NCBI GenBank assembly: GCA_015233115.1
Contig: JADFYJ010000005.1
Location: 22,359 to 86,358 of the forward strand
Reading direction: 5' to 3'
Length of the DNA: 64,000 bases
Source of the DNA: Candidatus Omnitrophota bacterium
Lineage (GTDB): Bacteria > Omnitrophota > Gorgyraeia > Zapsychrales > Zapsychraceae
The stretch's first letter is position 1. The number at the start of each line of letters is the position of its first letter. This document shows, piece by piece, positions 1,163 through 38,446 of the stretch. The notes beneath the pieces are model-generated. The model ran no database searches. It had not been told where the DNA came from and saw nothing but the letters and a program-made list of their open reading frames with translations. Position numbers and translations under genes: made by a program.

Positions 1163-3322
1163 TTACTGACCTATCTTAGGGAACCATTTCAACTTATCTG
1201 CCTGCTTACCTAACTCCGTTTTCCCGCACGTCCTGATCAACGCCTTATAAAATTTATCCGCAAGCATAAGGTCGCACCTGGCAAGAAAAAGTCCTCCCTG
1301 GCATAATGCCTTGGCTTTAAGTTCATCGTTGTCCGAAAGAAGCTGGGCGCTTTGCCACATTAAATCCGCCGCCTTATAACGATAGTGAAATCTTTTATCC
1401 GGTGAAGGCAGAGAACTCAACGCACGACTTTCCTCATCACCAGTCCCATAGAAAAAACCGCGATGCGCGAATCTATGTTTTATGGACTCATAATTTGGGA
1501 AGGCTCCCCTATCCACAAAACCATCCGGATCCAACTCTGTTCCCATTAATTCCATTCCATAACGTCGCACTATAATTCCCGCATCATAATATGCTTTGGC
1601 CCGATCTTTTTTCGCTATCCTTTGATTCTGCGCATTCAAAAGTAAAACGTGAAGTTTGCCTAATGTCTCTCTCGGATTAATATTTTCATTCACCTGTTCA
1701 TATTCCGAATCACCTGACTTGTTTTTCTTTTCAATATATCCGCGGTCAATTTTTATTTTTGTTGGCATATATTTTCCGGCAGGCTCTAACTCTCCTTGTC
1801 GCACCAACCGCCTGGCCAAAAGATATTCCAACGCTTCCCGCAAAGTAAGTCCGCCGTCATCAATATTTTCGGCGAACTCGCCTTCATATATTTTTTGTTT
1901 GTTAGCTAACACAGAGTTCCCTTTGTTATTGTTCAAGAAATCCTCAAGCTCCTGAACAGTTAATACTTTTTCTGCCACATAAGCGATATCTTCCCAATAT
2001 TTTCCTTTCAGAAGAAAATCAAAAGCCATGGTGTATTCTTTTCTACTTAATTTTAAAACCGCCATATTTGAATTGAGCTCGCGCCCAATGTCTTCTTGAA
2101 AAAACATGTTTTTATCAGGACTTTTTTCAAATGAAGATATGACTTTCGACAATTTTCCAATAGCCTCGTCAACTTTTTCGTCTCGCAATGACAGTTTAAA
2201 ATCAATAAACCGAGCCAAAGGCGTTGAGAGTTTCGAAGATGTCAACCAGCGCTTTGCCAACGCCCTGTCACCTTTAATATAATATAGCCATGCTACTCGG
2301 TCTGCGTAATCAATCGGATCTGTTTTCTTTAATCCCTCGATCGCGGACAAAAGCCTGCTGAAAAAATCTTTATGCTTTTTATCGTCATTCAATTCCATTT
2401 CTTCCCAATATGGCCGGGAAATGGCCCATCCCAAAAGAATATTCCTCGCTGTTTTATCATTTACAATCGTCGCGATAGTGTTATCCGTTGTCTCAGAAAC
2501 ATTACTGCAAACCCAATTCAATGAATCAATATCCATCTGCTCTAAATAATGTTTAAGACTTGAAACATAATCTTTCTGTTCATACTCAGCCAGCGCTTGC
2601 CAGCCTAAACTTTCCTTCGCAAGACCCAATGAATCTATATAACCATTTTCAGCCATTTTTCTGGTTTGTTCAAAAAATGGAATCGCGCGTTTCTGATCAC
2701 GCAAAGATAAATACGCTTTGCCAATCATAAAGGAAGCCCAGGTGCTCTTATATTTACGTTCAGATTCCGGCAATTTAAATATTTTTGACCATTCGTTGAT
2801 GGACGCAAAAAAATCATTGATGTGATACTTTCCAGCACCAGTTAAATATAATCTAAATTCTTCCGGCACCTTTGACGTCAAAATAATACTTAGTTTATTC
2901 TTTAACAAATTGAGTTTAACCCGCTCGTGACTGCGAAATCTTCCCCCGTACCATAACGAATGGTCTTCTACTAAAAATGTCTGAAGATAGGAATTTATTT
3001 CGTCGCGCGATTTTTGATATGACATAACAGCATCATGGAATTCTTTTTCCGTAATTTGGGAAGCTTTTAAAGATTTTCTCAAATCACCCTCATCAACATC
3101 AGAAACACGTTTAGGCTGTGGGGCTTTTATTTCAAACGGCAGTTTATTTCCGCCTGTTCGTTTTAATTCAAACAAAAAATTCCCTTCAGGAATAGCTAAA
3201 AATTTTTCTTTGGAACTTCGGACAAAATAGGCATCATCATATTCCGGCGCACAGGCCAGCGCCAATGACGCGAATGAAAACAAAAAAACTATTATCAAAA
3301 AATAAAGATTAATTCGTTTCAT
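1163..3322 (-). CDS. Large secreted lipoprotein of unknown function (719 aa from internal Met with lipobox LALAC)
   Basis: Track ORF 1163..3463 has a non-signal N-terminal extension. Internal start MKRINLYFLIIVFLFSFASLALAC (ATG 3320-3322) is preceded by GTGAGG and gives a signal peptide plus lipobox. No recognisable catalytic motif. Confidence 0.5.
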   Translation of the reverse strand: MKRINLYFLIIVFLFSFASLALACAPEYDDAYFVRSSKEKFLAIPEGNFLFELKRTGGNKLPFEIKAPQPKRVSDVDEGDLRKSLKASQITEKEFHDAVMSYQKSRDEINSYLQTFLVEDHSLWYGGRFRSHERVKLNLLKNKLSIILTSKVPEEFRLYLTGAGKYHINDFFASINEWSKIFKLPESERKYKSTWASFMIGKAYLSLRDQKRAIPFFEQTRKMAENGYIDSLGLAKESLGWQALAEYEQKDYVSSLKHYLEQMDIDSLNWVCSNVSETTDNTIATIVNDKTARNILLGWAISRPYWEEMELNDDKKHKDFFSRLLSAIEGLKKTDPIDYADRVAWLYYIKGDRALAKRWLTSSKLSTPLARFIDFKLSLRDEKVDEAIGKLSKVISSFEKSPDKNMFFQEDIGRELNSNMAVLKLSRKEYTMAFDFLLKGKYWEDIAYVAEKVLTVQELEDFLNNNKGNSVLANKQKIYEGEFAENIDDGGLTLREALEYLLARRLVRQGELEPAGKYMPTKIKIDRGYIEKKNKSGDSEYEQVNENINPRETLGKLHVLLLNAQNQRIAKKDRAKAYYDAGIIVRRYGMELMGTELDPDGFVDRGAFPNYESIKHRFAHRGFFYGTGDEESRALSSLPSPDKRFHYRYKAADLMWQSAQLLSDNDELKAKALCQGGLFLARCDLMLADKFYKALIRTCGKTELGKQADKLKWFPKIGQ

Positions 3323-4568
3323 CGACTTTGGCCTCACTTTTCCTAATAAATAAATCTTTATTATCAGACACCCTAAACCATGCAGCCATCTTTTTTTGAG
3401 AAACACGCGGCGGCCGGCCCGTAATCCGCATCCCTTTTCCATCAGGAAGTGTCGAATAATCAAAATCGCCTAAAACATCAAAAACAGGGCTTCCCGTATC
3501 CCAAAAAATTTCAAACGACGCATTATTTGAAAAATTTATTTCCCCATCGTTTACAAGATAAACCTCTGTTATTCCATCGTCCTTGCGAACCAATTCAACA
3601 TCCAGATGACCGGCAGGTATTTCCCGTTTAATGACACGCGTAAATGTTTTCAAATCCCAGTTGAACCGATCTGAAGATAAAGGAAGCCGGAACCAACAAA
3701 CACCGCGGAAATTCTGTGACTTGACAGAATCAAGATATTTTAAAAAACCAATTATTTCTTGAGGGTCAGCAAAAACCATTTTCTTTTTTATTCCCTCAGC
3801 AAAATACTGTACGCCGCCTTCTGCTCTAAGTCCTATAAATTCATCAACTTTGCTGTAAGCAACCTCATAACCATATGTGGGGAGAGAAACATAGAAAGGC
3901 TTATTTAAATTAATCGTGCGGTTAAAATATTCAATGGACTTATCTTTTTGAAAAATATACTGCGACGTGTTTTTATTTTTGGGAAGTTCAAAAGAATGCA
4001 GCTGAAGAACATAGATATCAACCCAATTTAAAAGCGATAAGAAGTCTTTGCTTTCCAGCCAGGTCGGCAAAGCCGTGATTGAAACGGATTTCTCTTTGTA
4101 TGCAGATCGAAAAAGTTTTAGAAATCTTGCAAAATCATTCAATTTTGCCGTAGGACAATCATAATCTAATTCAATACCTGTAATATCAACGCCTGACTGC
4201 TTTGCCTGCTCAATAATGCCGTGGATCCCGTCAACAAGACACCTAACAATTGGCTGCTGATCCTGCACTTTTAAATATCGGGATAAATCCGTCCGCATGC
4301 GAATATCTATGACAGTTTTCTTTTTTGACCTTAAATATTCCCATTTAACAGCTACTTTTGAAAAACTAATATGGCCATTCTCAACCGTTAAATCACCTGC
4401 CAAAACCTTGAACTGAGTGCTTTGACTATTCAACTTCCCGATTGCCGCTTCTATTTCAGACCGCCAGCTCCTTTGCCAGATGTAAACCGAATTTTCATCG
4501 GCTCCTGATAAATTACAAACAGAAAGTACAAAAACAATGGTAAATATAATTTTTAAACCTACTTGCAT
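3309..4568 (-). CDS. DUF3142-like secreted protein (putative TIM-barrel glycoside-hydrolase-like fold)
   Basis: 435-aa ORF. Likely start at MQVGLKIIFTIVFVLSVCNLSGA (ATG 4566-4568), a signal peptide. Family resemblance from memory only. Overlaps upstream SLT gene by 10 nt and downstream lipoprotein gene by 14 nt, so the three look like an operon. Confidence 0.45.
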   Translation of the reverse strand: MQVGLKIIFTIVFVLSVCNLSGADENSVYIWQRSWRSEIEAAIGKLNSQSTQFKVLAGDLTVENGHISFSKVAVKWEYLRSKKKTVIDIRMRTDLSRYLKVQDQQPIVRCLVDGIHGIIEQAKQSGVDITGIELDYDCPTAKLNDFARFLKLFRSAYKEKSVSITALPTWLESKDFLSLLNWVDIYVLQLHSFELPKNKNTSQYIFQKDKSIEYFNRTINLNKPFYVSLPTYGYEVAYSKVDEFIGLRAEGGVQYFAEGIKKKMVFADPQEIIGFLKYLDSVKSQNFRGVCWFRLPLSSDRFNWDLKTFTRVIKREIPAGHLDVELVRKDDGITEVYLVNDGEINFSNNASFEIFWDTGSPVFDVLGDFDYSTLPDGKGMRITGRPPRVSQKKMAAWFRVSDNKDLFIRKSEAKVDETN

Positions 4569-5269
4569 ATAAAAATATGGAGATGATCTTTTGTAATCCA
4601 ATGACCTTTGGTGCATTGAATTTTTGGTTTGATGAACTTTTTGTCTTTGGCTTTCTTATCTGCTTGAGATTTCTTCGCGAATTCAGCTTCATATTCAGAA
4701 ACCCGGGGAACATAGCCTTTTATTTTATTAATAGTATCGGCACTGATATCTTTGGATGGCATCAAAAAATCTTTAACAGCATCCCATCTCGTCGGATCTT
4801 TTCCTGCTTTGGACGCCAACTGTTGTGCTTTGCCAATAGTACCCTGCCCTCCCGTATAAGCGGCAAAATCAAATTTTTCACGTTCGACAGGGTCAATTAT
4901 TGGGTATGTAAATAGTTTGGTACCAAGATTGGTTCTTTTAGAAAACGCGTAGTCAATATCTTTCAAATATCGTGCAGCGGCTATTGAAGAGTAATCAATA
5001 TCAAAACGTTGATCATTATCTTTAGAAACGTATAATCCATAATGTTCCGCCAAGGACTTCTGCAGCTGAAATTCACCCGCAGCGGCCGAAATACCCCGAT
5101 TATTCAACTTAGTTCCAAAACTGCTTTCTTTAGCATAAATTGCCTCAAGTGTATTTACATTCAACACATCTTTATCATCAAAATAAGTTGACGCATTTTC
5201 AAGAGCCTTACGGATATGTCCGTCTTCCTTTACAACCCAGATGTCTACATTAGTCATTTTCTTAGGCAT
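4559..5269 (-). CDS. Lytic transglycosylase, SLT domain, no signal peptide, basic C-terminal tail
   Basis: 236-aa ORF. Catalytic region ...AKESSFGTK...AAGEFQLQ matches the SLT E-S motif and GLMQ-like block. N-terminus MPKKMTNVDIWVVKEDG is not hydrophobic. Confidence 0.6.
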   Translation of the reverse strand: MPKKMTNVDIWVVKEDGHIRKALENASTYFDDKDVLNVNTLEAIYAKESSFGTKLNNRGISAAAGEFQLQKSLAEHYGLYVSKDNDQRFDIDYSSIAAARYLKDIDYAFSKRTNLGTKLFTYPIIDPVEREKFDFAAYTGGQGTIGKAQQLASKAGKDPTRWDAVKDFLMPSKDISADTINKIKGYVPRVSEYEAEFAKKSQADKKAKDKKFIKPKIQCTKGHWITKDHLHIFICK

Positions 5270-6798: not shown

Positions 6799-7444
6799 GG
6801 TTCATGACCTCCAAAAGTAATTTTATCCGTTCGGACAAGCCGGGCTGTCCGGAAAGCAACGCATATCTGTGAATAAGCCGCTTGTTAATAATCTTGGAGA
6901 ACAACTCCTTGTTAATTCTCATCCCTTCGAAATCTTCCTCGGCTCGAATAGATGGATTCAAATATAAATGATCGATAAACATTTTTTCCGGTGAAGCCAT
7001 TTTAAAATGCTTTCCACGGTGTTCGATCAGATCATAGCCAAAAAACATGTCCGGCTTGATGGTCCTATAACTAAATTGTGCTAATGGTGTTTGAAACTGG
7101 TAGGTTCTTCGTGTGGCAACTGCGGTAACCTCATAAACGCTTTCAGGGATGAGCCCGTAATAAGCGAAAGCCATTTGTAAAGAAACATATGAAGGCGCAT
7201 AAATCTTATTGGATATTTCAAATAGAACGCCTTCATCTACTTGTAAATCAGAAAAAACGTAATAACCTCGGGTCAATTTCTTAATGTAACCCTTATTTTG
7301 CCATTCAATGAGTCGGGGCCTATAAAAATCTTGTTCAACGCGTCGGATGTCGTTCAGCGAGAAAACCGTAAAATCTTTAAGCAAATTATGAAAATCCAGG
7401 TATCTCATAGCATTTCGTGAAAGTACGTTAAATAGTAACTTCAC
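6791..7444 (-). CDS. AbiEi-like antitoxin/transcriptional regulator, partner of AbiEii
   Basis: 217-aa ORF overlapping AbiEii start by 8 nt, the typical AbiEi-AbiEii arrangement. Assignment is by context and size rather than a clear motif. Confidence 0.45.
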   Translation of the reverse strand: MKLLFNVLSRNAMRYLDFHNLLKDFTVFSLNDIRRVEQDFYRPRLIEWQNKGYIKKLTRGYYVFSDLQVDEGVLFEISNKIYAPSYVSLQMAFAYYGLIPESVYEVTAVATRRTYQFQTPLAQFSYRTIKPDMFFGYDLIEHRGKHFKMASPEKMFIDHLYLNPSIRAEEDFEGMRINKELFSKIINKRLIHRYALLSGQPGLSERIKLLLEVMNHA

Positions 7445-10163: not shown

Positions 10164-10211
10164 AATTATCCCCTATCTTGACTGATTTTTTAAAAAATAA
10201 CATATCGTTTT

Positions 10212-10240
10212 GTAGGGGCGATCTCCTGATCGCCCGCTAC
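10212..10240. repeat. 29-nt GC-rich REP-like palindrome, copy A (GTAGGGGCGATCTCCTGATCGCCCGCTAC)
   Basis: 8-bp stem GGGCGATC/GATCGCCC with a 4-nt loop. An inverted copy lies at 10312-10340 and a third at 38414-38446. Stands out as GC-rich in an AT-rich intergenic region. Confidence 0.7.
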
Positions 10241-10311: not shown

Positions 10312-10340
10312 AGTGCGGGCGATCAGGAGATCGCCCCTAC
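10312..10340. repeat. 29-nt GC-rich REP-like palindrome, copy B (inverted relative to copy A, 70 nt away)
   Basis: AGTGCGGGCGATCAGGAGATCGCCCCTAC is the exact reverse complement of copy A. Sits just 3' of the mscS stop, so a terminator role is possible. Confidence 0.7.
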
Positions 10341-10351
10341 AACCGAGTCTT

Positions 10352-11167
10352 TCACTTCTCACTTTTATTTTTTATATGTATTTCCCTCTGCGGATAGGGC
10401 AGAGTGATTCCATTTTTTTCTAATTCGATTTTTGCCCGTTCCGTTATATCAAACAAAACCGCCCAATAATTGCTGGGTTTGGCCCAAGGACGGCACACGA
10501 GATTTACACTGCTTTCCGCTAATTCTGATACAGCTACCATTGGCGCCGGATCTTTTAAAACATTAGGGTTGGACAACATAACCTGCATTAAAATATCTTT
10601 AGCTAATTTTATATTATCATTATACGAAATCCCGAATACCATATCAATACGACGATAAGGAACTGCGCTCAAATTCACAATATTATCATTAATAATCTTG
10701 GAATTCGGTACCATGACATGCTGATTATCAGCTGTCGCGATCAAGGTATTAAAAATTTTTATTTCTTTAACTTCACCGGTAACCCCGCCAGCCTGAACCG
10801 CATCCCCGAGACGAAAAGGCTTTAAAATAATAATCATCACACCAGCCGCAAAATTGGATAATGATCCCTGCAATGCTAAACCGATCGCTAAACCTGCGGC
10901 ACCGACGATTGCGACGATCGAAGTGGTCTGCACGCCCAATTGATTCAAAGCCGCGATAATCACAAATGCTAAAATACCAAAATAAACCAATTCTTTTAAA
11001 AATGAAATCAGCGTGGCATCCAGGTTAGAGCGACGCATAACTTTTTCTAAAAACCGCGCAATGACTCTGGCCAAAATTTTACCGATCAAAAATATGACCA
11101 GCGCCCAAACTAAATTGACTCCGTATTTCAAACCAAATTCATTAACCATATCCCAATTAAAACTCAT
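10352..11167 (-). CDS. mscS: Small-conductance mechanosensitive channel (MscS family)
   Basis: 271-aa ORF with three N-terminal TM helices and the conserved MscS beta-domain ...LGDAVQAGGVTGEVKEIKIFNTLIATADNQHVMVPNSKI. Confidence 0.8.
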   Translation of the reverse strand: MSFNWDMVNEFGLKYGVNLVWALVIFLIGKILARVIARFLEKVMRRSNLDATLISFLKELVYFGILAFVIIAALNQLGVQTTSIVAIVGAAGLAIGLALQGSLSNFAAGVMIIILKPFRLGDAVQAGGVTGEVKEIKIFNTLIATADNQHVMVPNSKIINDNIVNLSAVPYRRIDMVFGISYNDNIKLAKDILMQVMLSNPNVLKDPAPMVAVSELAESSVNLVCRPWAKPSNYWAVLFDITERAKIELEKNGITLPYPQREIHIKNKSEK

Positions 11168-11172
11168 ATTAT

Positions 11173-11661
11173 TTATCCTTTGAGGCCTTGTTTATCTATT
11201 CTAAATCCAAATTGCCAGTATTCGCATTTTACCTTTGCGTTCTCGGTAATCTTGATATCTACTTCGTCATCTTCGCGAATCAGCCCGTGCCATATTCCTT
11301 TAAACAATATAACTGGCTTATCCAAAGAAAAACACTCAATTTTTTTAAAATCCTGTTCACGGCTTACAAAAAATAATGCCTTTCCTTTTACCGGTTCAAA
11401 AGTCTCGTCCGAATCCGGATGGCATTCCATTCTGCCGATCGTGCGGTCGCGCAAAACCAAATACGCCACCCGCCAGCCAGTCTTGGCTTCTGAGGTATGC
11501 ACAATCCGCCATAAATTCCGCTTATCACCCTTCTTTTCTCTAAGGGGATAATCAATGATCCGCCCATATTTTCGGAAATTTACTGAATTAATCGATAGAA
11601 TTTTTAACTCATTATTTATCTGTACCATATGCAAATTTCGTGTCCCCCGAATTTCTAACAC
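11173..11661 (-). CDS. Hypothetical protein, possibly cupin-like
   Basis: 162-aa ORF with no confident family assignment. Has a 6-nt gap to mscS, so probably co-transcribed. Confidence 0.35.
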   Translation of the reverse strand: MLEIRGTRNLHMVQINNELKILSINSVNFRKYGRIIDYPLREKKGDKRNLWRIVHTSEAKTGWRVAYLVLRDRTIGRMECHPDSDETFEPVKGKALFFVSREQDFKKIECFSLDKPVILFKGIWHGLIREDDEVDIKITENAKVKCEYWQFGFRIDKQGLKG

Positions 11662-11671
11662 TGTTGATTAC

Positions 11672-12694
11672 TTATTTCGTTACCGCTGAAATATGCTGTG
11701 CCATGTCCTTAACACGAACATACCATAGCTTCCCCTTTTTTAGAGCCTTGAGTTCGCCACGGTTTATCAAGTTGCGAAGGTAATCCTGGGAATAATCATA
11801 AAGCTGAGCCAAATCACGCAAAGGAATAACTGCATCCTTGCTTATACTTTTTGTCTTTCCTGTCTTCATGCGCTTGATACTTTCAACCAAACGCCCAAGA
11901 ACAATTTTTTTAAGCTCGGAGAGCGGTTTATCAGTCACAATAGCATCAAGCTGCTCGAGCGACAACTTCTTCCCTTTTTCAATCCTCCGGCTGATCTCCT
12001 CAAAACAATCATCCCCCTGCTCTAAGGCACTGTAATAAAGGTCACGATCCAACTTTGAAAAACCCTTGATCGCAATATTCAGATGCCCGCTACCTATAAG
12101 AATGTAGTTTAGTAAAATACGACCAGCACGGCCATTACTATCTCTGAAAGGATGAATTGTTTCAAACCAGGTATGCGTTAAAGCTGCCACTGTTATAGGC
12201 GAATACTTGGACAGTTTCAAATGCCTATTAGTCCAGCGAACCATCAAGTCTACAGCTTCACGAATATAAAAGTGATCAACAGGCTTAAACTTCGACTGCG
12301 TGACTTCGGCCGTCATCTTGCGAAAATCCCCGATCTCACCTATATAACTCCCGAGCTCCTTTTCATACCGCATGAGGAGCGTATGGATCTGTTTTACGTC
12401 AGCCATCCTCAGGCAAAACTCACCCTCAAGCCACTGATTGTAGGCATATTCGTAGATCGTGCTCGCCGCTTCAAAATATCCCAGAATAGCGGCCGCCTTT
12501 TCCTTATTGGTCCGGCTATTATGTTCCAGAACATCAATCAACTCCTGTCGGTTGGCAAAAACCCCTTCCATAGCGATAGAGTTACGAATTTCCTCCCGGA
12601 ACAGCGAATACCATTCTGCATTCTGGACCGTTACAAGCCGTCCATCGCCGGACCGAAGCGCAGCAATAGCTTTCTTCAGACTCTTTTCATCCAT
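11672..12694 (-). CDS. Fic/Doc-family protein (AMPylator-type) with C-terminal helix-turn-helix
   Basis: Fic motif HPFRDSNGRAGR (HPFx[DE]GNGR core). C-terminal excisionase-like HTH ...DYLRNLINRGELKALKKGKLWYVRVKDM. Start taken at the second in-frame ATG (12692-12694) because AGGAG lies 9 nt upstream. The track start at 12703 has the SD abutting the ATG. Confidence 0.8.
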   Translation of the reverse strand: MDEKSLKKAIAALRSGDGRLVTVQNAEWYSLFREEIRNSIAMEGVFANRQELIDVLEHNSRTNKEKAAAILGYFEAASTIYEYAYNQWLEGEFCLRMADVKQIHTLLMRYEKELGSYIGEIGDFRKMTAEVTQSKFKPVDHFYIREAVDLMVRWTNRHLKLSKYSPITVAALTHTWFETIHPFRDSNGRAGRILLNYILIGSGHLNIAIKGFSKLDRDLYYSALEQGDDCFEEISRRIEKGKKLSLEQLDAIVTDKPLSELKKIVLGRLVESIKRMKTGKTKSISKDAVIPLRDLAQLYDYSQDYLRNLINRGELKALKKGKLWYVRVKDMAQHISAVTK

Positions 12695-12710
12695 AAACAC
12701 CATCTCCTAT

Positions 12711-12919
12711 TTGCGAACCCCCGCAGCTGGTTCGGAAATAATATACCACATTATCGTCGATATGCAAATAGAAATTTTATAAATATTCCGAACTTTCCGA
12801 ACCAATACATCGCGCCCCACACTTCACTTTCCGAACCACCAATAAAGGTTCGGAAATAAAATAATATTATTCGACAATATATAAAATTTTTCTTATAACT
12901 TTTGCGAATTTTTCGAACC
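12711..12919. promoter_or_regulatory. Array of operator-like repeats: two 29-nt palindromes TTTSCGAACC-N9-GGTTCGGAAA (12711-12739, 12828-12856) plus tandem half-sites (12785-12803, 12901-12919)
   Basis: Read directly: TTTGCGAACCcccgcagctGGTTCGGAAA and TTTCCGAACCaccaataaaGGTTCGGAAA, then aTTCCGAACtTTCCGAACC and TTTGCGAATtTTTCGAACC. All lie between the divergent Fic gene and a plus-strand small ORF. Confidence 0.5.
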
Positions 12920-12933
12920 TAAACAAGGAGGAC

Positions 12934-13008
12934 ATGCAAACCTTAATTGACAAACTAATGAAAAATAAATGGCGTTTTCGTCAAGGCCTTGAATGGTATA
13001 GCTGGTAG
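12934..13008 (+). CDS. 24-aa small ORF MQTLIDKLMKNKWRFRQGLEWYSW with perfect Shine-Dalgarno (AAGGAGG, 6-nt spacer), divergent from Fic
   Basis: Not in the ORF track (too short). Has ATG, a strong RBS and an in-frame TAG, and is followed by a hairpin plus T-run at 13049-13076. Coding status not provable from sequence alone. Confidence 0.35.
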   Translation: MQTLIDKLMKNKWRFRQGLEWYSW

Positions 13009-13048
13009 TGTTGCCGGCTGGGATTTCTTACGGGATCAGAGGAGACGA

Positions 13049-13076
13049 AATAGGGCGCTGTCCCCTATTCTTTTAT
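13049..13076 (+). terminator. Rho-independent terminator for the small plus-strand ORF
   Basis: AATAGGGcgctgtCCCTATT followed by CTTTTAT. Confidence 0.5.
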
Positions 13077-13078
13077 AA

Positions 13079-13116
13079 ATCAATAGTGACAGGCATCGAT
13101 GCCTGTCACTATTGAT
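13079..13116 (-). terminator. Perfect 38-nt palindrome ATCAATAGTGACAGGCATCGATGCCTGTCACTATTGAT, likely terminator of the FadL-like gene (convergent terminator pair)
   Basis: Located 20 nt past the stop of the minus-strand OMP gene. On the minus strand it is followed by TTATAAAAGAATAG (U/A-rich). Confidence 0.5.
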
Positions 13117-13135
13117 TTAACCCTATTGCCTCTGA

Positions 13136-14422
13136 TTAAAAATCCCAAGTCAAAGAACCCATGCCAAACTGGGCAAAGGTCTTATATGTGCCTGCTATGT
13201 TAGCATCGGTATCTGTAATCTTCCTCGGCTGGAAGATTCTCGTAACATATGCTAAATCAAAAGATAAATTGTTGGTCAATTTAATTCCCGTCCCAACTGT
13301 TACACAACTGCTATTAGAATCAGCCAGCCATAAAGGATAATTTGTCTTATTAACCGGACTGGGGAAATACGCATATCCCATTCTCATAGCCCACCGGTCT
13401 GTTACCCAATATTCCGTACCGATTCCGCCGGATATTGTATCTTTAAAATGCAAAGAAGTCGAAGCGCCAATGTTGCTTAAAAGCCCGTTAGAATAATCAT
13501 TGGGGTCAACATAATTTATCGCGCTTTGACGCACAGACGACCAATTCATCCACTCCACATCCGCATTGATTCTCCATTTTTCTGTGGGACGGAAGCTATA
13601 ACCTAACGTCACACTTTGCGGTAATTTCATTTTTGAAGATATTTCCGTTTCATAATTTGTCTTACCGCCAAAAAGAGCCATACCTGCGTAGCCACCTAAA
13701 TTATCCAAGTACAATTTACCGTGCATATCCAATTGAATCGGACTACGGTAAACTAAACCAATTTGATTCTGATCATTAATTTTAAATAAGCCAGAGATGT
13801 GATACCCCATCCCGTCATTATCTTTTCCCTTGGCCTCAATATTGCCATTTCCACCTGCAAGATTATCAAACTTTACAGTTTTATTGATTCTGGACATTTC
13901 AAAATCAAATCCAGCACCCAGAGAAAACCGTTCCGTAACTTTCACCCCTATAGCGGCAATAGCTGTAGAGTCAACCATATCAGTTTTTATTGCTTTATAT
14001 TTCGCAAAACTGTTATCTGCCCATTCTGTTCCCAGACCCCAAGTTGAAACAACCCCAAATCCGAATGCCACACGGTCATTTTTCATTTTATCCGCGAAGA
14101 AGAAATGCGGAATGGTGAACTCTTTTACTTTTCCGGCAGAATCTTCCTGACCAGCAGCAGAGGAATGATAATGTTGGCGCAATTGTAAAGCAGTCGCACC
14201 TAGCTGTATATGACGGCCTTCATTGAGTTGAGTTAAACCTGCGGGATTGTAATAAACTGCGGATGGAGTGTCGGCTTCGCCTGCAAACGCGAAACCCATG
14301 CTTTCGGCTTTTGGATCAACCACTTGCGCATTATACCCGCCTGATCCTGCGGCCATTGCGGGACTTACCATAGATAATATCCCACCCAACAAAAAAAGAA
14401 CAAACAGTATCGCCTTGTTCAC
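13136..14422 (-). CDS. Outer-membrane beta-barrel transporter, FadL/OmpP1 family
   Basis: 428-aa ORF with signal peptide MNKAILFVLFLLGGILSMVSPAMAAG. Ends in a C-terminal aromatic residue (...LTWDF) typical of OM beta-barrels. Glycine/aromatic alternation throughout. Confidence 0.65.
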   Translation of the reverse strand: MNKAILFVLFLLGGILSMVSPAMAAGSGGYNAQVVDPKAESMGFAFAGEADTPSAVYYNPAGLTQLNEGRHIQLGATALQLRQHYHSSAAGQEDSAGKVKEFTIPHFFFADKMKNDRVAFGFGVVSTWGLGTEWADNSFAKYKAIKTDMVDSTAIAAIGVKVTERFSLGAGFDFEMSRINKTVKFDNLAGGNGNIEAKGKDNDGMGYHISGLFKINDQNQIGLVYRSPIQLDMHGKLYLDNLGGYAGMALFGGKTNYETEISSKMKLPQSVTLGYSFRPTEKWRINADVEWMNWSSVRQSAINYVDPNDYSNGLLSNIGASTSLHFKDTISGGIGTEYWVTDRWAMRMGYAYFPSPVNKTNYPLWLADSNSSCVTVGTGIKLTNNLSFDLAYVTRIFQPRKITDTDANIAGTYKTFAQFGMGSLTWDF

Positions 14423-14511
14423 TTTCTCCCCCCCTTGTTATTTTGTTCAAAAGTGAAATACGCTTTTATTATATATGGTAAATTGCATTTACCAAATAAA
14501 ATTCTATTTTT

Positions 14512-15942
14512 TTACATTAAGCTTTTGTAGACACCTAAGGTGTGATCGGCTATAACATCCCAGGAGAAATCTTTTTCTGCAGCATAGCGGCCATTTTTTC
14601 CCATCCACCTGCCATGTTCAAAACCAGCGAATAATGATCCAACGCCCCACGCCACTGAATCAGGGTTAGGATGAATTTTAAATCCGCTCACATCATGCCA
14701 TACAATTTCTGAAGGCCCACCAATATTGGTCGCGATAACTGGTTTGCCAGCACTCCATGCTTCCAATATAACAATACCAAAAGGTTCATTACGGCTAGGC
14801 ACACAAACACAATCGCAGGCTTTGTAAAGATCTCTTAAGCCCCACGCATTTTGCTGTCCTAAGAAACGGCAAGCATGGCCAACTCCTAATTGATGCGCTC
14901 TGCGTTCCACTGATCCACGTAAATTACCATCACCCGCAAAAACGAATTTAGCGTTTGAATAAGAACGTAAAATCATGGGAATAGCTTCAACTAAAATATC
15001 CGGACCTTTTTGCTGGGTCATACGTCCCACAAAGAGCACCATAGGATCCATCGGAGCAATAGAATAGCGCATTTTAACTCCACCCGCATCAACGTGAACA
15101 TCATAAAATGTAGGATTTACTCCATTATATACCACATTGACTTTATGGTCTGGCAAATTATACATCCACTGAACTTCCCCTTTAGTCGCATAGGATACAG
15201 CTATGACTTTGTCCGCACAAAATGTTCCATTACGCTCGTGATCCCGGATTCGAGCTGACGGCCCGGCATAAAAATTATTACCGCAGCGTCCATATTCAGT
15301 TGAATGCATAGTCATAATACCCCGTCTGCCGCGGCCTTGTTTAATCCATACCATGGCATTAGATGCTAGCCAATCATGTGCGTGAACTATATCAAAATGC
15401 GCACCCATGTAATCTTCAGTATGAAAAACAGAGCCCACAAAAGCCCGGCACATATTATTAATATCTTCAATAAAATCACTATGCGGGCCATACGGAACCC
15501 TATGGTAATGAACACCATCGATCAATTGGTATTGCAAATGACCAGGATAAGCCATACGGGTATAAACGTGAACTTCATGGCCTTTGCGTTCTAAAGCGCA
15601 AGCTAATTCAGTCACATGGTTAGCTACCCCTCCAACACTAATCGAATGCAGAGTTTCCCAAGACAATAAAGCCACACGTAGCGGATTAACCTTTGGCTTA
15701 ACTTCAACTATTTCAGGTATTTGAGGAGCTTGCGGCTGTGCTTCTTCAATGCGGCTGATCATTTCTTCAATGATCGTTTCATCCTGCTTTTTGAGCAAAT
15801 CTTCTATGATGGCAGAAGCGCTATCCACAGTTTCATGGTCAGCAATCTCTGGAAGTTGTTTTATTTCAAGAACTTCCTCAGTCATTGTGATTCGTGAAAT
15901 CGCTTTCTTGTTATTTAAAGTAGATTCTTTTGCGGTTTTCAT
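14512..15942 (-). CDS. GT-B fold glycosyltransferase (GT4/GT5-like, glycogen/starch-synthase-like) with ~90-aa acidic N-terminal extension
   Basis: 476-aa ORF. Core begins LRVALLSWETLHSISVGGVANHV, with GT-B C-terminal block ...PSRNEPFGIVILEAWSAGKPVIATNIGGPSEIV. Confidence 0.6.
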   Translation of the reverse strand: MKTAKESTLNNKKAISRITMTEEVLEIKQLPEIADHETVDSASAIIEDLLKKQDETIIEEMISRIEEAQPQAPQIPEIVEVKPKVNPLRVALLSWETLHSISVGGVANHVTELACALERKGHEVHVYTRMAYPGHLQYQLIDGVHYHRVPYGPHSDFIEDINNMCRAFVGSVFHTEDYMGAHFDIVHAHDWLASNAMVWIKQGRGRRGIMTMHSTEYGRCGNNFYAGPSARIRDHERNGTFCADKVIAVSYATKGEVQWMYNLPDHKVNVVYNGVNPTFYDVHVDAGGVKMRYSIAPMDPMVLFVGRMTQQKGPDILVEAIPMILRSYSNAKFVFAGDGNLRGSVERRAHQLGVGHACRFLGQQNAWGLRDLYKACDCVCVPSRNEPFGIVILEAWSAGKPVIATNIGGPSEIVWHDVSGFKIHPNPDSVAWGVGSLFAGFEHGRWMGKNGRYAAEKDFSWDVIADHTLGVYKSLM

Positions 15943-38413: not shown

Positions 38414-38446
38414 GTTAGCGGGCGATCAGGTGATCGCCCCTACGAC
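38414..38446. repeat. GC-rich REP-like palindrome, copy C (GTTAGCGGGCGATCAGGTGATCGCCCCTACGAC)
   Basis: Same unit as 10212-10240 and 10312-10340 with a single loop substitution (AGGT vs AGGA). Confidence 0.65.

Follow-up and report, generated by a model that had tools for sequence, protein, structure and literature searches.

Among the described proteins in which a Fic enzyme is joined to a DNA-binding domain, CccR of Yersinia pseudotuberculosis carries a helix-turn-helix (HTH) at its C-terminus and represses its own promoter via inverted repeats near the -35 and -10 boxes, a function for which dimerisation is required (PMC9755527). Another point of reference is BldC of Streptomyces, whose protomers assemble head-to-tail on 9-bp direct repeats (PMC5859096). 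The present analysis concerns a Fic-HTH_17 gene and the repeat array upstream of it in a stretch of 64,000 nucleotides from a Candidatus Omnitrophota bacterium (assembly GCA_015233115.1, contig JADFYJ010000005.1, positions 22,359 to 86,358); this whole stretch is referred to as the window. A Fic enzyme fused to a repressor is an already known kind of protein, and the HTH_17 variant with a composite operator is new. The array of operators is real, and it is both conserved and specific; the divergent small-peptide partner proposed by an earlier account made from the letters of the window (the sequence-only reading) is unsupported. The locus is quite probably a stand-alone, horizontally acquired single-gene cassette, in which a class II Fic enzyme fused to HTH_17 would read its own sites and regulate itself negatively.

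Eight 9-bp half-sites lie in the 230 nt upstream of the Fic gene, with the consensus GTTCGGAAA when read towards the gene. They are arranged as two palindromes (10-nt arms around an N9 spacer) and two pairs in tandem, whose period is 9 nt (Table 1), and the repeats at the array are real and far above chance. Exact matches to TTYSCGAAC number six in the 64-kb window, with about 3.7 expected window-wide, and five of the six fall within 150 nt at the array. The sequence-only reading had described two palindromes of shared geometry and two pairs of tandem half-sites. Both tandem pairs were found where it had placed them; both palindromes are also present, the distal one at the position given and the proximal one a single base away from the 12711-12739 assigned to it. 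That account did not include the larger order of the region, which as a whole is a direct duplication of a unit of about 118 nt (repeat families D1 and D2). The proximal palindrome starts 1 nt past the -10 box of the Fic promoter and ends 1 nt short of the Shine-Dalgarno (SD) sequence. The Fic start at 12694 is preferred over that at 12703, because the AGGAG then lies 9 nt upstream.

The family to which this gene belongs is large, widespread and closely conserved. At least 390 homologues were found at E <= 1e-10 in several phyla, with an identity of about 60% across phyla. A genome scan gave 34 full-length orthologues, and another three close homologues were retrieved together with their contigs. 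The orthologues come from Omnitrophota, from metagenome-assembled genomes (MAGs) labelled Planctomycetota, from delta- and other Proteobacteria (Pseudomonadota/Desulfobacterota), and from Ignavibacteria/Melioribacteraceae, Bacteroidetes, Marinimicrobia and Calditrichia. The half-site is common to the upstream DNA of nearly all orthologues examined, in unrelated genomic contexts. Half-site counts, geometry and neighbouring genes were compared over 38 orthologous loci, to which the following counts refer. For the half-site GTTCG[GCA]AAA, 94 copies lie in the upstream DNA (12.3 kb) and 10 in the flanks (224 kb), an enrichment of about 170-fold upstream, and the variant GTTCG[GA]TA[AG] occurs 48 times upstream versus 6 times in the flanks. 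The geometry of the sites is just as regular: inverted pairs are 20 nt apart from start to start in 40 of 49 cases, direct pairs show the 9-nt period in 42 of 44, and 43 of 44 direct pairs are oriented towards the gene. A palindrome is found at 30 of the loci and a tandem pair at 31. The 20-nt start-to-start geometry and the position of the proximal palindrome are repeated in the loci L001, L002, L081, L085 and L086.

The near-exclusive association of the palindrome with this gene is evident from a metagenome scan for the exact form TTTCCGAACC-N9-GGTTCGGAAA. The scan gave 38 loci, 30 of which adjoin a Fic-HTH gene; in 29 of these the palindrome sits 39-141 nt upstream, and in the remaining one (L122) the contig end truncates the gene. 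Eight loci depart from this pattern, namely a GC-rich repeat element (L094, L110, L114), a terminator hairpin (L115), a match inside an open reading frame (ORF; L117), a contig end (L096) and two orphans (L092, L111). No match to the exact palindrome was found in viral contigs. In L094 (11877), L110 (12217) and L114 (249) the 29-nt palindrome lies inside a longer shared GC-rich repeat unrelated to Fic genes, which is apparently a different element matching the pattern by coincidence. The orphan palindrome of L092 is located upstream of an AbrB-like and RelE/ParE-like gene pair, and that of L111 between nucleotidyltransferase-like and ABC-permease genes.

In the commonest layout of the family a palindrome is followed by a -35 box (TTGCTT), 17 nt, TGnTATATT, a second palindrome, the SD, the ATG and a tandem pair that forms codons 2-7. 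In this layout ATG GTT CGG AAA GTT CGG AAA is translated as MVRKVRK, and MVRK[VI]R starts 77 of 120 homologues (e.g., L003-L009, L012, L017; P0022, P0024). From this correspondence, the first seven residues of the protein appear to be dictated by a putative DNA-binding site. The clade of the window (the window itself, L001, L081, L085 and L086) possesses two units, each made of a tandem pair, a promoter region and a palindrome. Their lengths are the same in all five genomes, exactly 92 nt for the distal and exactly 94 nt for the proximal unit, and the promoter TTGCAT-N17-TATACT is kept in all five members. The proximal units are 73-86% identical including the promoter, and the distal units 53-71%. 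In the distal units of the five genomes the promoter region is degenerate and the sites are intact; because sites and length are kept while the promoter region has degenerated, the distal unit is evidently selected for its sites and their spacing, as auxiliary operators would be. The distal unit was also considered as a second promoter and was rejected, as its -35 and -10 boxes are degenerate and poorly conserved compared with the proximal ones.

The half-site and the domain that would read it also vary in concert. At loci with GTTCGGAAA the HTH residues are PLR..LKA..GKLWY, whereas loci with GTTCGATAA/GGTAA have PLS..LKG..GKTWY (9/10, versus 0/28 elsewhere), and loci with GTACGGAAA have YLRQLIHLG. 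This joint change of half-site variants and HTH residues is suggestive, being supportive of recognition of the sites by the domain and not conclusive.

From these observations a mechanism can be proposed. Each HTH_17 would read one 9-bp half-site, the two HTHs of a Fic-mediated dimer would bridge inverted half-sites whose starts are 20 bp (two helical turns) apart, and further HTHs would occupy the tandem half-sites head-to-tail at the 9-bp period. Occupation of the proximal palindrome, between the -10 box and the SD, would block transcription of the protein's own gene, and negative autoregulation of this type would keep a potentially toxic enzyme scarce. Auxiliary operators that raise occupancy by cooperative binding could be supplied by the proximal tandem pair together with the entire distal unit. 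Autorepression is the best reading because the proximal palindrome has a conserved sigma-70 promoter on one side and the ribosome site on the other. The protein's own HTH is the only constant candidate binder, since no other gene is conserved nearby and the genomic contexts differ. Autoregulation of the Fic-HTH_17 gene is well supported by inference and precedent. In this regard, the idea of the sequence-only reading that the HTH reads the arrayed sites and that the gene regulates itself gains support from the comparison, through the recurring grammar, the HTH co-variation and the near-exclusive palindrome.

DNA binding might also serve mainly as an allosteric or sensing switch. On this account the array would hold an inactive (or deAMPylating) oligomer, and release or re-binding would alter Fic activity, possibly in a SoFic-like abortive-infection role; such a switch can coexist with autorepression. 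It has been reported that CbFic2 toggles between AMPylase and deAMPylase on DNA-induced dimerisation via its C-terminal HTH (PMC10628234). The PADLOC SoFic model (PDLC03963) covers residues 6-226 of the window protein (model positions 29-242 of 361, 6e-29), eight sites per promoter exceed the needs of simple repression, and some orthologues have neighbours of a mobile or defence type (integrase, Schlafen-like helicase, nucleotidyltransferase, second Fic and DUF1016 genes). However, the conserved position of the palindrome relative to the -10 box and the SD is exactly that of a repressor operator, viral contigs lack the exact palindrome, and the window copy sits amid housekeeping genes. Moreover, the NCBIfam SoFic equivalog NF046030 gives 38.3 bits against a cutoff of 550, and because of this score the window protein is not considered a SoFic orthologue. 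A mainly allosteric role is therefore judged unlikely, but the precedent of CbFic2 keeps it a live alternative.

The 340-aa protein matches Pfam Fic (PF02661) with 57.2 bits (cutoff 24) at residues 97-199 and, at its C-terminus, Pfam HTH_17 (PF12728) with 32.1 bits (cutoff 27); its relatives in the PDB are FICD, BT_2513 and SoFic. The sequence-only reading had attributed to this gene a canonical Fic motif, a C-terminal excisionase-like HTH and the lack of an obvious inhibitory-helix gene nearby. The HTH is borne out by the HTH_17 match, and the gene with its Fic domain also stands; the motif is not fully canonical. The Fic family has the active-site motif HxFx(D/E)GNGRxxR. In the window protein the motif is HPFRDSNGRAGR, in which Ser replaces the first Gly of DGNGR: DGNGR is present in 118 of 120 homologues, and the window protein alone has DSNGR. 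The catalytic His is retained, as are the Arg residues. As for the supposed lack of an inhibitory helix, it is contradicted by SIAMEG (S39-I-A-M-E43-G44, residues 39-44), which fits the inhibitory motif (S/T)xxxE(G/N), lies N-terminal to the Fic core and belongs to the same chain. The SxxxEG motif is found in 119 of the 120 homologues checked, in the form SIAIEG in 118, and Met in place of Ile is found in the window protein alone. By these motifs the window protein is classed as a class II Fic with its inhibitory helix in the same chain, and owing to this helix of its own the Fic would need no partner. The two unusual residues are encoded at approximately 12160-12162 (Ser of DSNGR) and 12566-12568 (Met of SIAMEG).

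An AlphaFold model places a C-terminal winged HTH (wHTH) with the order beta-alpha-alpha-beta-beta at about residues 287-337. In Foldseek this domain matches BldC (6ama) and P2 Cox (4lhf), both with a probability of 0.99, and the TM-score of the BldC match is 0.69 on the target. Judged on the model, the C-terminal domain is an HTH_17 winged helix of the MerR/Xis/BldC-like type.

Several points weigh against the autoregulated cassette as described. Binding of the sites by their cognate HTH is inferred from sequence comparison, as are repression, cooperativity and bridging by a dimer. The confidence of the model is moderate (predicted local distance difference test, 73), and the model is silent on the oligomeric state. 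The co-variation of half-sites and HTH residues probably represents perhaps two evolutionary events and is no statistical proof. The distal sites could be activating rather than repressing. Exact palindromes are present without a nearby Fic-HTH gene at L092 5323-5351 and L111 763-791; extra targets are possible given these sites, which may be either remnants of lost cassettes or such targets. Finally, Ser in place of the conserved Gly may impair the enzyme of this genome, whose enzymatic competence is uncertain. The window Fic may be an attenuated or decaying copy, or its two unusual residues may come from sequencing error in the MAG.

The sequence-only reading had also proposed that the array controls a divergent promoter pair and that a 24-codon ORF on the other strand encodes a Trp-rich peptide acting as the regulated partner of Fic (inhibitor, antitoxin or target). 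The ORF exists, an AAGGAGG precedes it at 12925-12931, and terminator-like hairpins follow at 12999-13020 and 13049-13069, the last point agreeing with the terminator that had been assigned to it. A weak promoter-like site can be found by eye on the plus strand (TCGACA 12871-12876, 17 nt, TATAAC 12894-12899), and this would put the distal tandem pair at the transcription start. In addition, the SoFic of E. coli is reported to have a small protein of antitoxin-like character, AS1 (47 aa; PMC12249575).

However, the spacing of the AAGGAGG, which had been called optimal, is just 2 nt to the ATG at 12934, versus 4-9 nt in the likely real genes of the window with an SD of at least 5 nt; this comparison gives weak support, the sample being small (nine ORFs with such an SD, several of them wrong starts or spurious). 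Furthermore, five of the seven AGGAGG copies in the window have no long ORF behind them, and about two of the seven precede one. The candidate -10 is without its near-invariant final T, and the promoter-like site was neither reported by the promoter scan nor conserved in L001, L081, L085 and L086. In these closest loci, whose Fic proteins are 84-88% identical to that of the window, the ORF and its SD are absent as well, despite the retained distal unit. This absence from orthologous Fic loci had been named beforehand by the sequence-only reading as telling against its proposal. Beyond the distal tandem pair the closest loci carry unrelated sequence, with neither SD nor ATG, and their upstream neighbours are co-directional and different from each other: an RlmL-like methyltransferase, a DUF2254 gene and a 45-aa ORF after another Fic.

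Wider searches gave the same picture. Neither the 24-aa peptide (tblastn) nor the DNA of 12920-13135 (blastn) gave anything above chance when searched against the window and 80 related loci. When all ORFs of at least 30 aa within 1.5 kb of the 38 orthologues were compared with each other by BLAST, no conserved neighbour emerged on either side; the sole clusters were near-identical loci or ORFs translating conserved operator DNA. An Rfam scan of 11000-15000 at E <= 1 returned only a spurious microRNA match on a 44-nt palindrome, and the small-ORF region is not explained by known RNA families. It must also be considered that the inhibitory helix is already in the Fic chain, and that AS1 is located downstream of SoFic, not upstream and divergent, whereas here a cupin gene comes directly after the Fic stop. 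A divergent promoter pair with a peptide partner is consequently held to be very unlikely, and the 24-codon ORF is, on this comparison, most likely a chance, non-functional sequence in the junction between cassette and host. A reading of the Trp-rich ORF as a Trp leader or attenuator was rejected: no plus-strand gene lies downstream, and the next gene is a convergent outer-membrane protein gene behind a bidirectional terminator.

The insertion of the cassette is evident from synteny. It is flanked by a FadL/TodX-like outer-membrane protein gene (13136-14422, minus strand) and a cupin-like gene (probable start 11628, minus strand). L126 (GCA_015233195.1, Omnitrophota) is the closest available relative of the host genome; the databases searched contained no near relative, and the closest outer-membrane protein homologue was just 46% identical. 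The order response regulator, 217-aa protein, glycosyltransferase, FadL/TodX-like protein, cupin-like protein, MscS, Tpx and QueA is common to L126 and the window. In L126, 10 nt (7303-7312) lie between the outer-membrane protein gene and the cupin gene, against about 1.5 kb in the window, and this additional stretch contains the Fic gene with its operator array, the DNA around the small ORF and a compound hairpin element. Because the flanking genes are only 10 nt apart in L126, the Fic gene is read as a horizontally acquired cassette inserted between them. The host cupin gene follows the Fic stop within 10-45 nt.

This insertion and the type of DNA-binding domain could suggest that the repeats are architectural or recombination sites, with the Xis-like HTH_17 in the part of a recombination directionality factor that would work on arm-type sites mobilising the cassette. 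HTH_17 is indeed an excisionase-type fold, and the model resembles P2 Cox. Xis binding typically involves direct repeats of fixed period, like those of the array. However, the sites lie away from the ends of the insert, as about 215 nt of unrelated DNA separate the distal pair from the host gene. No recombinase is found near the window locus and none is conserved across the 38 loci. The sites are in fixed register with the promoter and the start codon, with the tandem pair serving as codons 2-7 in the 77 homologues mentioned above. Terminal repeats were also sought, and a 12/15 direct match between a palindrome arm and the DNA that follows the Fic stop was rejected as within chance expectation by our own estimate. 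A recombination role has accordingly very little probability, and the autoregulated cassette is retained as the preferred reading.

Table 1. Coordinates of the Fic-HTH_17 cassette, its sites and adjoining features in the window
Feature	Position	Strand	Basis and remarks
Fic-HTH_17 gene	11672..12694	minus	340 aa; Pfam Fic + HTH_17, alignment of 27 homologues
Shine-Dalgarno AGGAG of Fic gene	12704..12708	minus	read from sequence; aligned spacing 8
Proximal palindromic operator TTTGCGAACC-N9-GGTTCGGAAA	12710..12738		between -10 box and SD; inverted-repeat search
Sigma-70-type Fic promoter	12740..12768	minus	promoter scan; -35 TTTGCA 12768-12763, 17-nt spacer, TG-extended -10 TATATT 12745-12740
Proximal tandem half-site pair (ATTCCGAAC TTTCCGAAC C)	12785..12803		9-nt period, pointing to Fic gene
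Distal palindromic operator TTTCCGAACC-N9-GGTTCGGAAA	12828..12856		inverted-repeat search
Distal tandem half-site pair (TTTGCGAAT TTTTCGAAC C)	12901..12919		9-nt period
24-codon ORF (MQTLIDKLMKNKWRFRQGLEWYSW)	12934..13008	plus	ORF list; in junction DNA of insert
Compound hairpin element	13034..13136		inverted-repeat search, terminator scan, folding z = -7.6 on minus strand
Inserted cassette, approximate extent	11629..13135		synteny with L126

The compound hairpin element consists of an outer stem of 7-8 bp (TCAGAGG/CCTCTGA) around the 7-bp hairpin 13049-13069 and the perfect 44-nt palindrome 13076-13119. It is present in a single copy in the window, and abuts the stop codon of the outer-membrane protein gene. 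As a probable bidirectional terminator it would separate the cassette from this convergent gene; it is possibly a small inserted element. Another repeated structure lies in the tpx-mscS intergenic region, where a 28-nt perfect inverted repeat has its arms 77 nt apart (10210-10237, 10315-10342). Each arm contains the hairpin GGGCGATC-N4-GATCGCCC, of which a third copy is found at 38420-38439 and none is expected by chance; the repeat looks like an element of the repetitive extragenic palindromic (REP) or miniature inverted-repeat transposable element (MITE) type. In other genomes, one Omnitrophota contig (L085) has, besides the Fic-HTH_17 orthologue, a second Fic gene of 350 aa that lacks the HTH and is located about 600 nt upstream of it (2318-3370 and 4001-5029). 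This second Fic adjoins PcfJ-like and DUF1016 genes, in a mobile or defence-type neighbourhood.

The main outcome is an operator grammar, derived from sequence alone, for a widespread and unstudied Fic family: a 9-bp half-site, inverted pairs at 20 bp and tandem pairs at a 9-bp period. It comes with matched variants of protein and site, which are directly testable. A Fic-HTH_17 gene needs no partner gene to spread as a cassette, and a tempting small-peptide hypothesis is removed as unsupported. A bolder extension, rather unlikely and put forward tentatively, would see in the locus a one-gene equivalent of a toxin-antitoxin-regulator system that crosses phyla with its own composite operator. 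Here the operator DNA would, beyond repressing transcription, be a platform holding an inactive oligomer, displacement (e.g., during phage infection or DNA damage) would release AMPylation, and the distal flank of the window, which is lineage-specific, may also drive a small divergent transcript.

The comparison with known systems places the locus between several described types. The toxin-plus-repressor logic of CccR is found here with a DNA-binding domain of the BldC/Xis type. Both systems show inverted repeats over the own promoter and a wide half-site spacing that suits a dimer with distant HTHs, and they share negative autoregulation, demonstrated for CccR and proposed here. However, the operator of CccR is made of one 10-bp inverted repeat spaced by 26 bp, whereas the window has a 9-bp gap between the arms, extra tandem pairs of 9-bp period and a duplicated unit. 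HTH_17, which is BldC/Xis-like, belongs to another HTH family than the domain of CccR. Moreover, CccR is an effector secreted by a type VI secretion system, and nothing suggests secretion here.

The DNA-binding part finds its counterpart in BldC, a small MerR-like wHTH with the fold predicted by the model for the C-terminal domain, and the 9-bp repeats of BldC match the 9-nt tandem period. BldC is a free regulator of 68 residues with AT-rich sites and a large regulon, whereas here the domain is tethered to an enzyme, inverted pairs are also present and the target is apparently the own gene only.

The enzymatic part recalls SoFic/EcSofic, which likewise combine a class II core and N-terminal inhibitory helix with a C-terminal domain of DNA-binding type, the toxic enzyme being restrained. 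The C-terminus here is HTH_17 and not of the SoFic type, as the match to the SoFic model stops at position 242 of 361. EcSofic has a small downstream gene of the AS1 type (PMC12249575), whereas no conserved downstream ORF of at least 30 aa is present in the 38 loci. SoFic is a single-gene phage defence; no defence phenotype is known for the protein studied here.

CbFic2 of Coxiella burnetii (PMC10628234; PDB 8cil) stands at rank 10 among the structural matches of the model. It is also a class II Fic, with the inhibitory helix TSAIEG and a C-terminal HTH. However, this HTH is a DeoR-type wHTH that binds DNA without a defined operator array, and CbFic2 acts on host histone H3, its DNA binding controlling catalysis and not transcription.

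Phd/Doc and FicA/FicT, which are type II modules, share with this cassette a toxin of the Fido fold, an inhibitory element and expression that is autorepressed at the own promoter. In these modules a separate antitoxin protein provides both inhibition and DNA binding, whereas here both are fused into the Fic chain; in the 38 loci no conserved neighbour that could be an adjacent antitoxin gene occurs on either side. Functionally, the cassette resembles a type II toxin-antitoxin system in which the inhibition and the operator binding of the antitoxin have been fused to the toxin.

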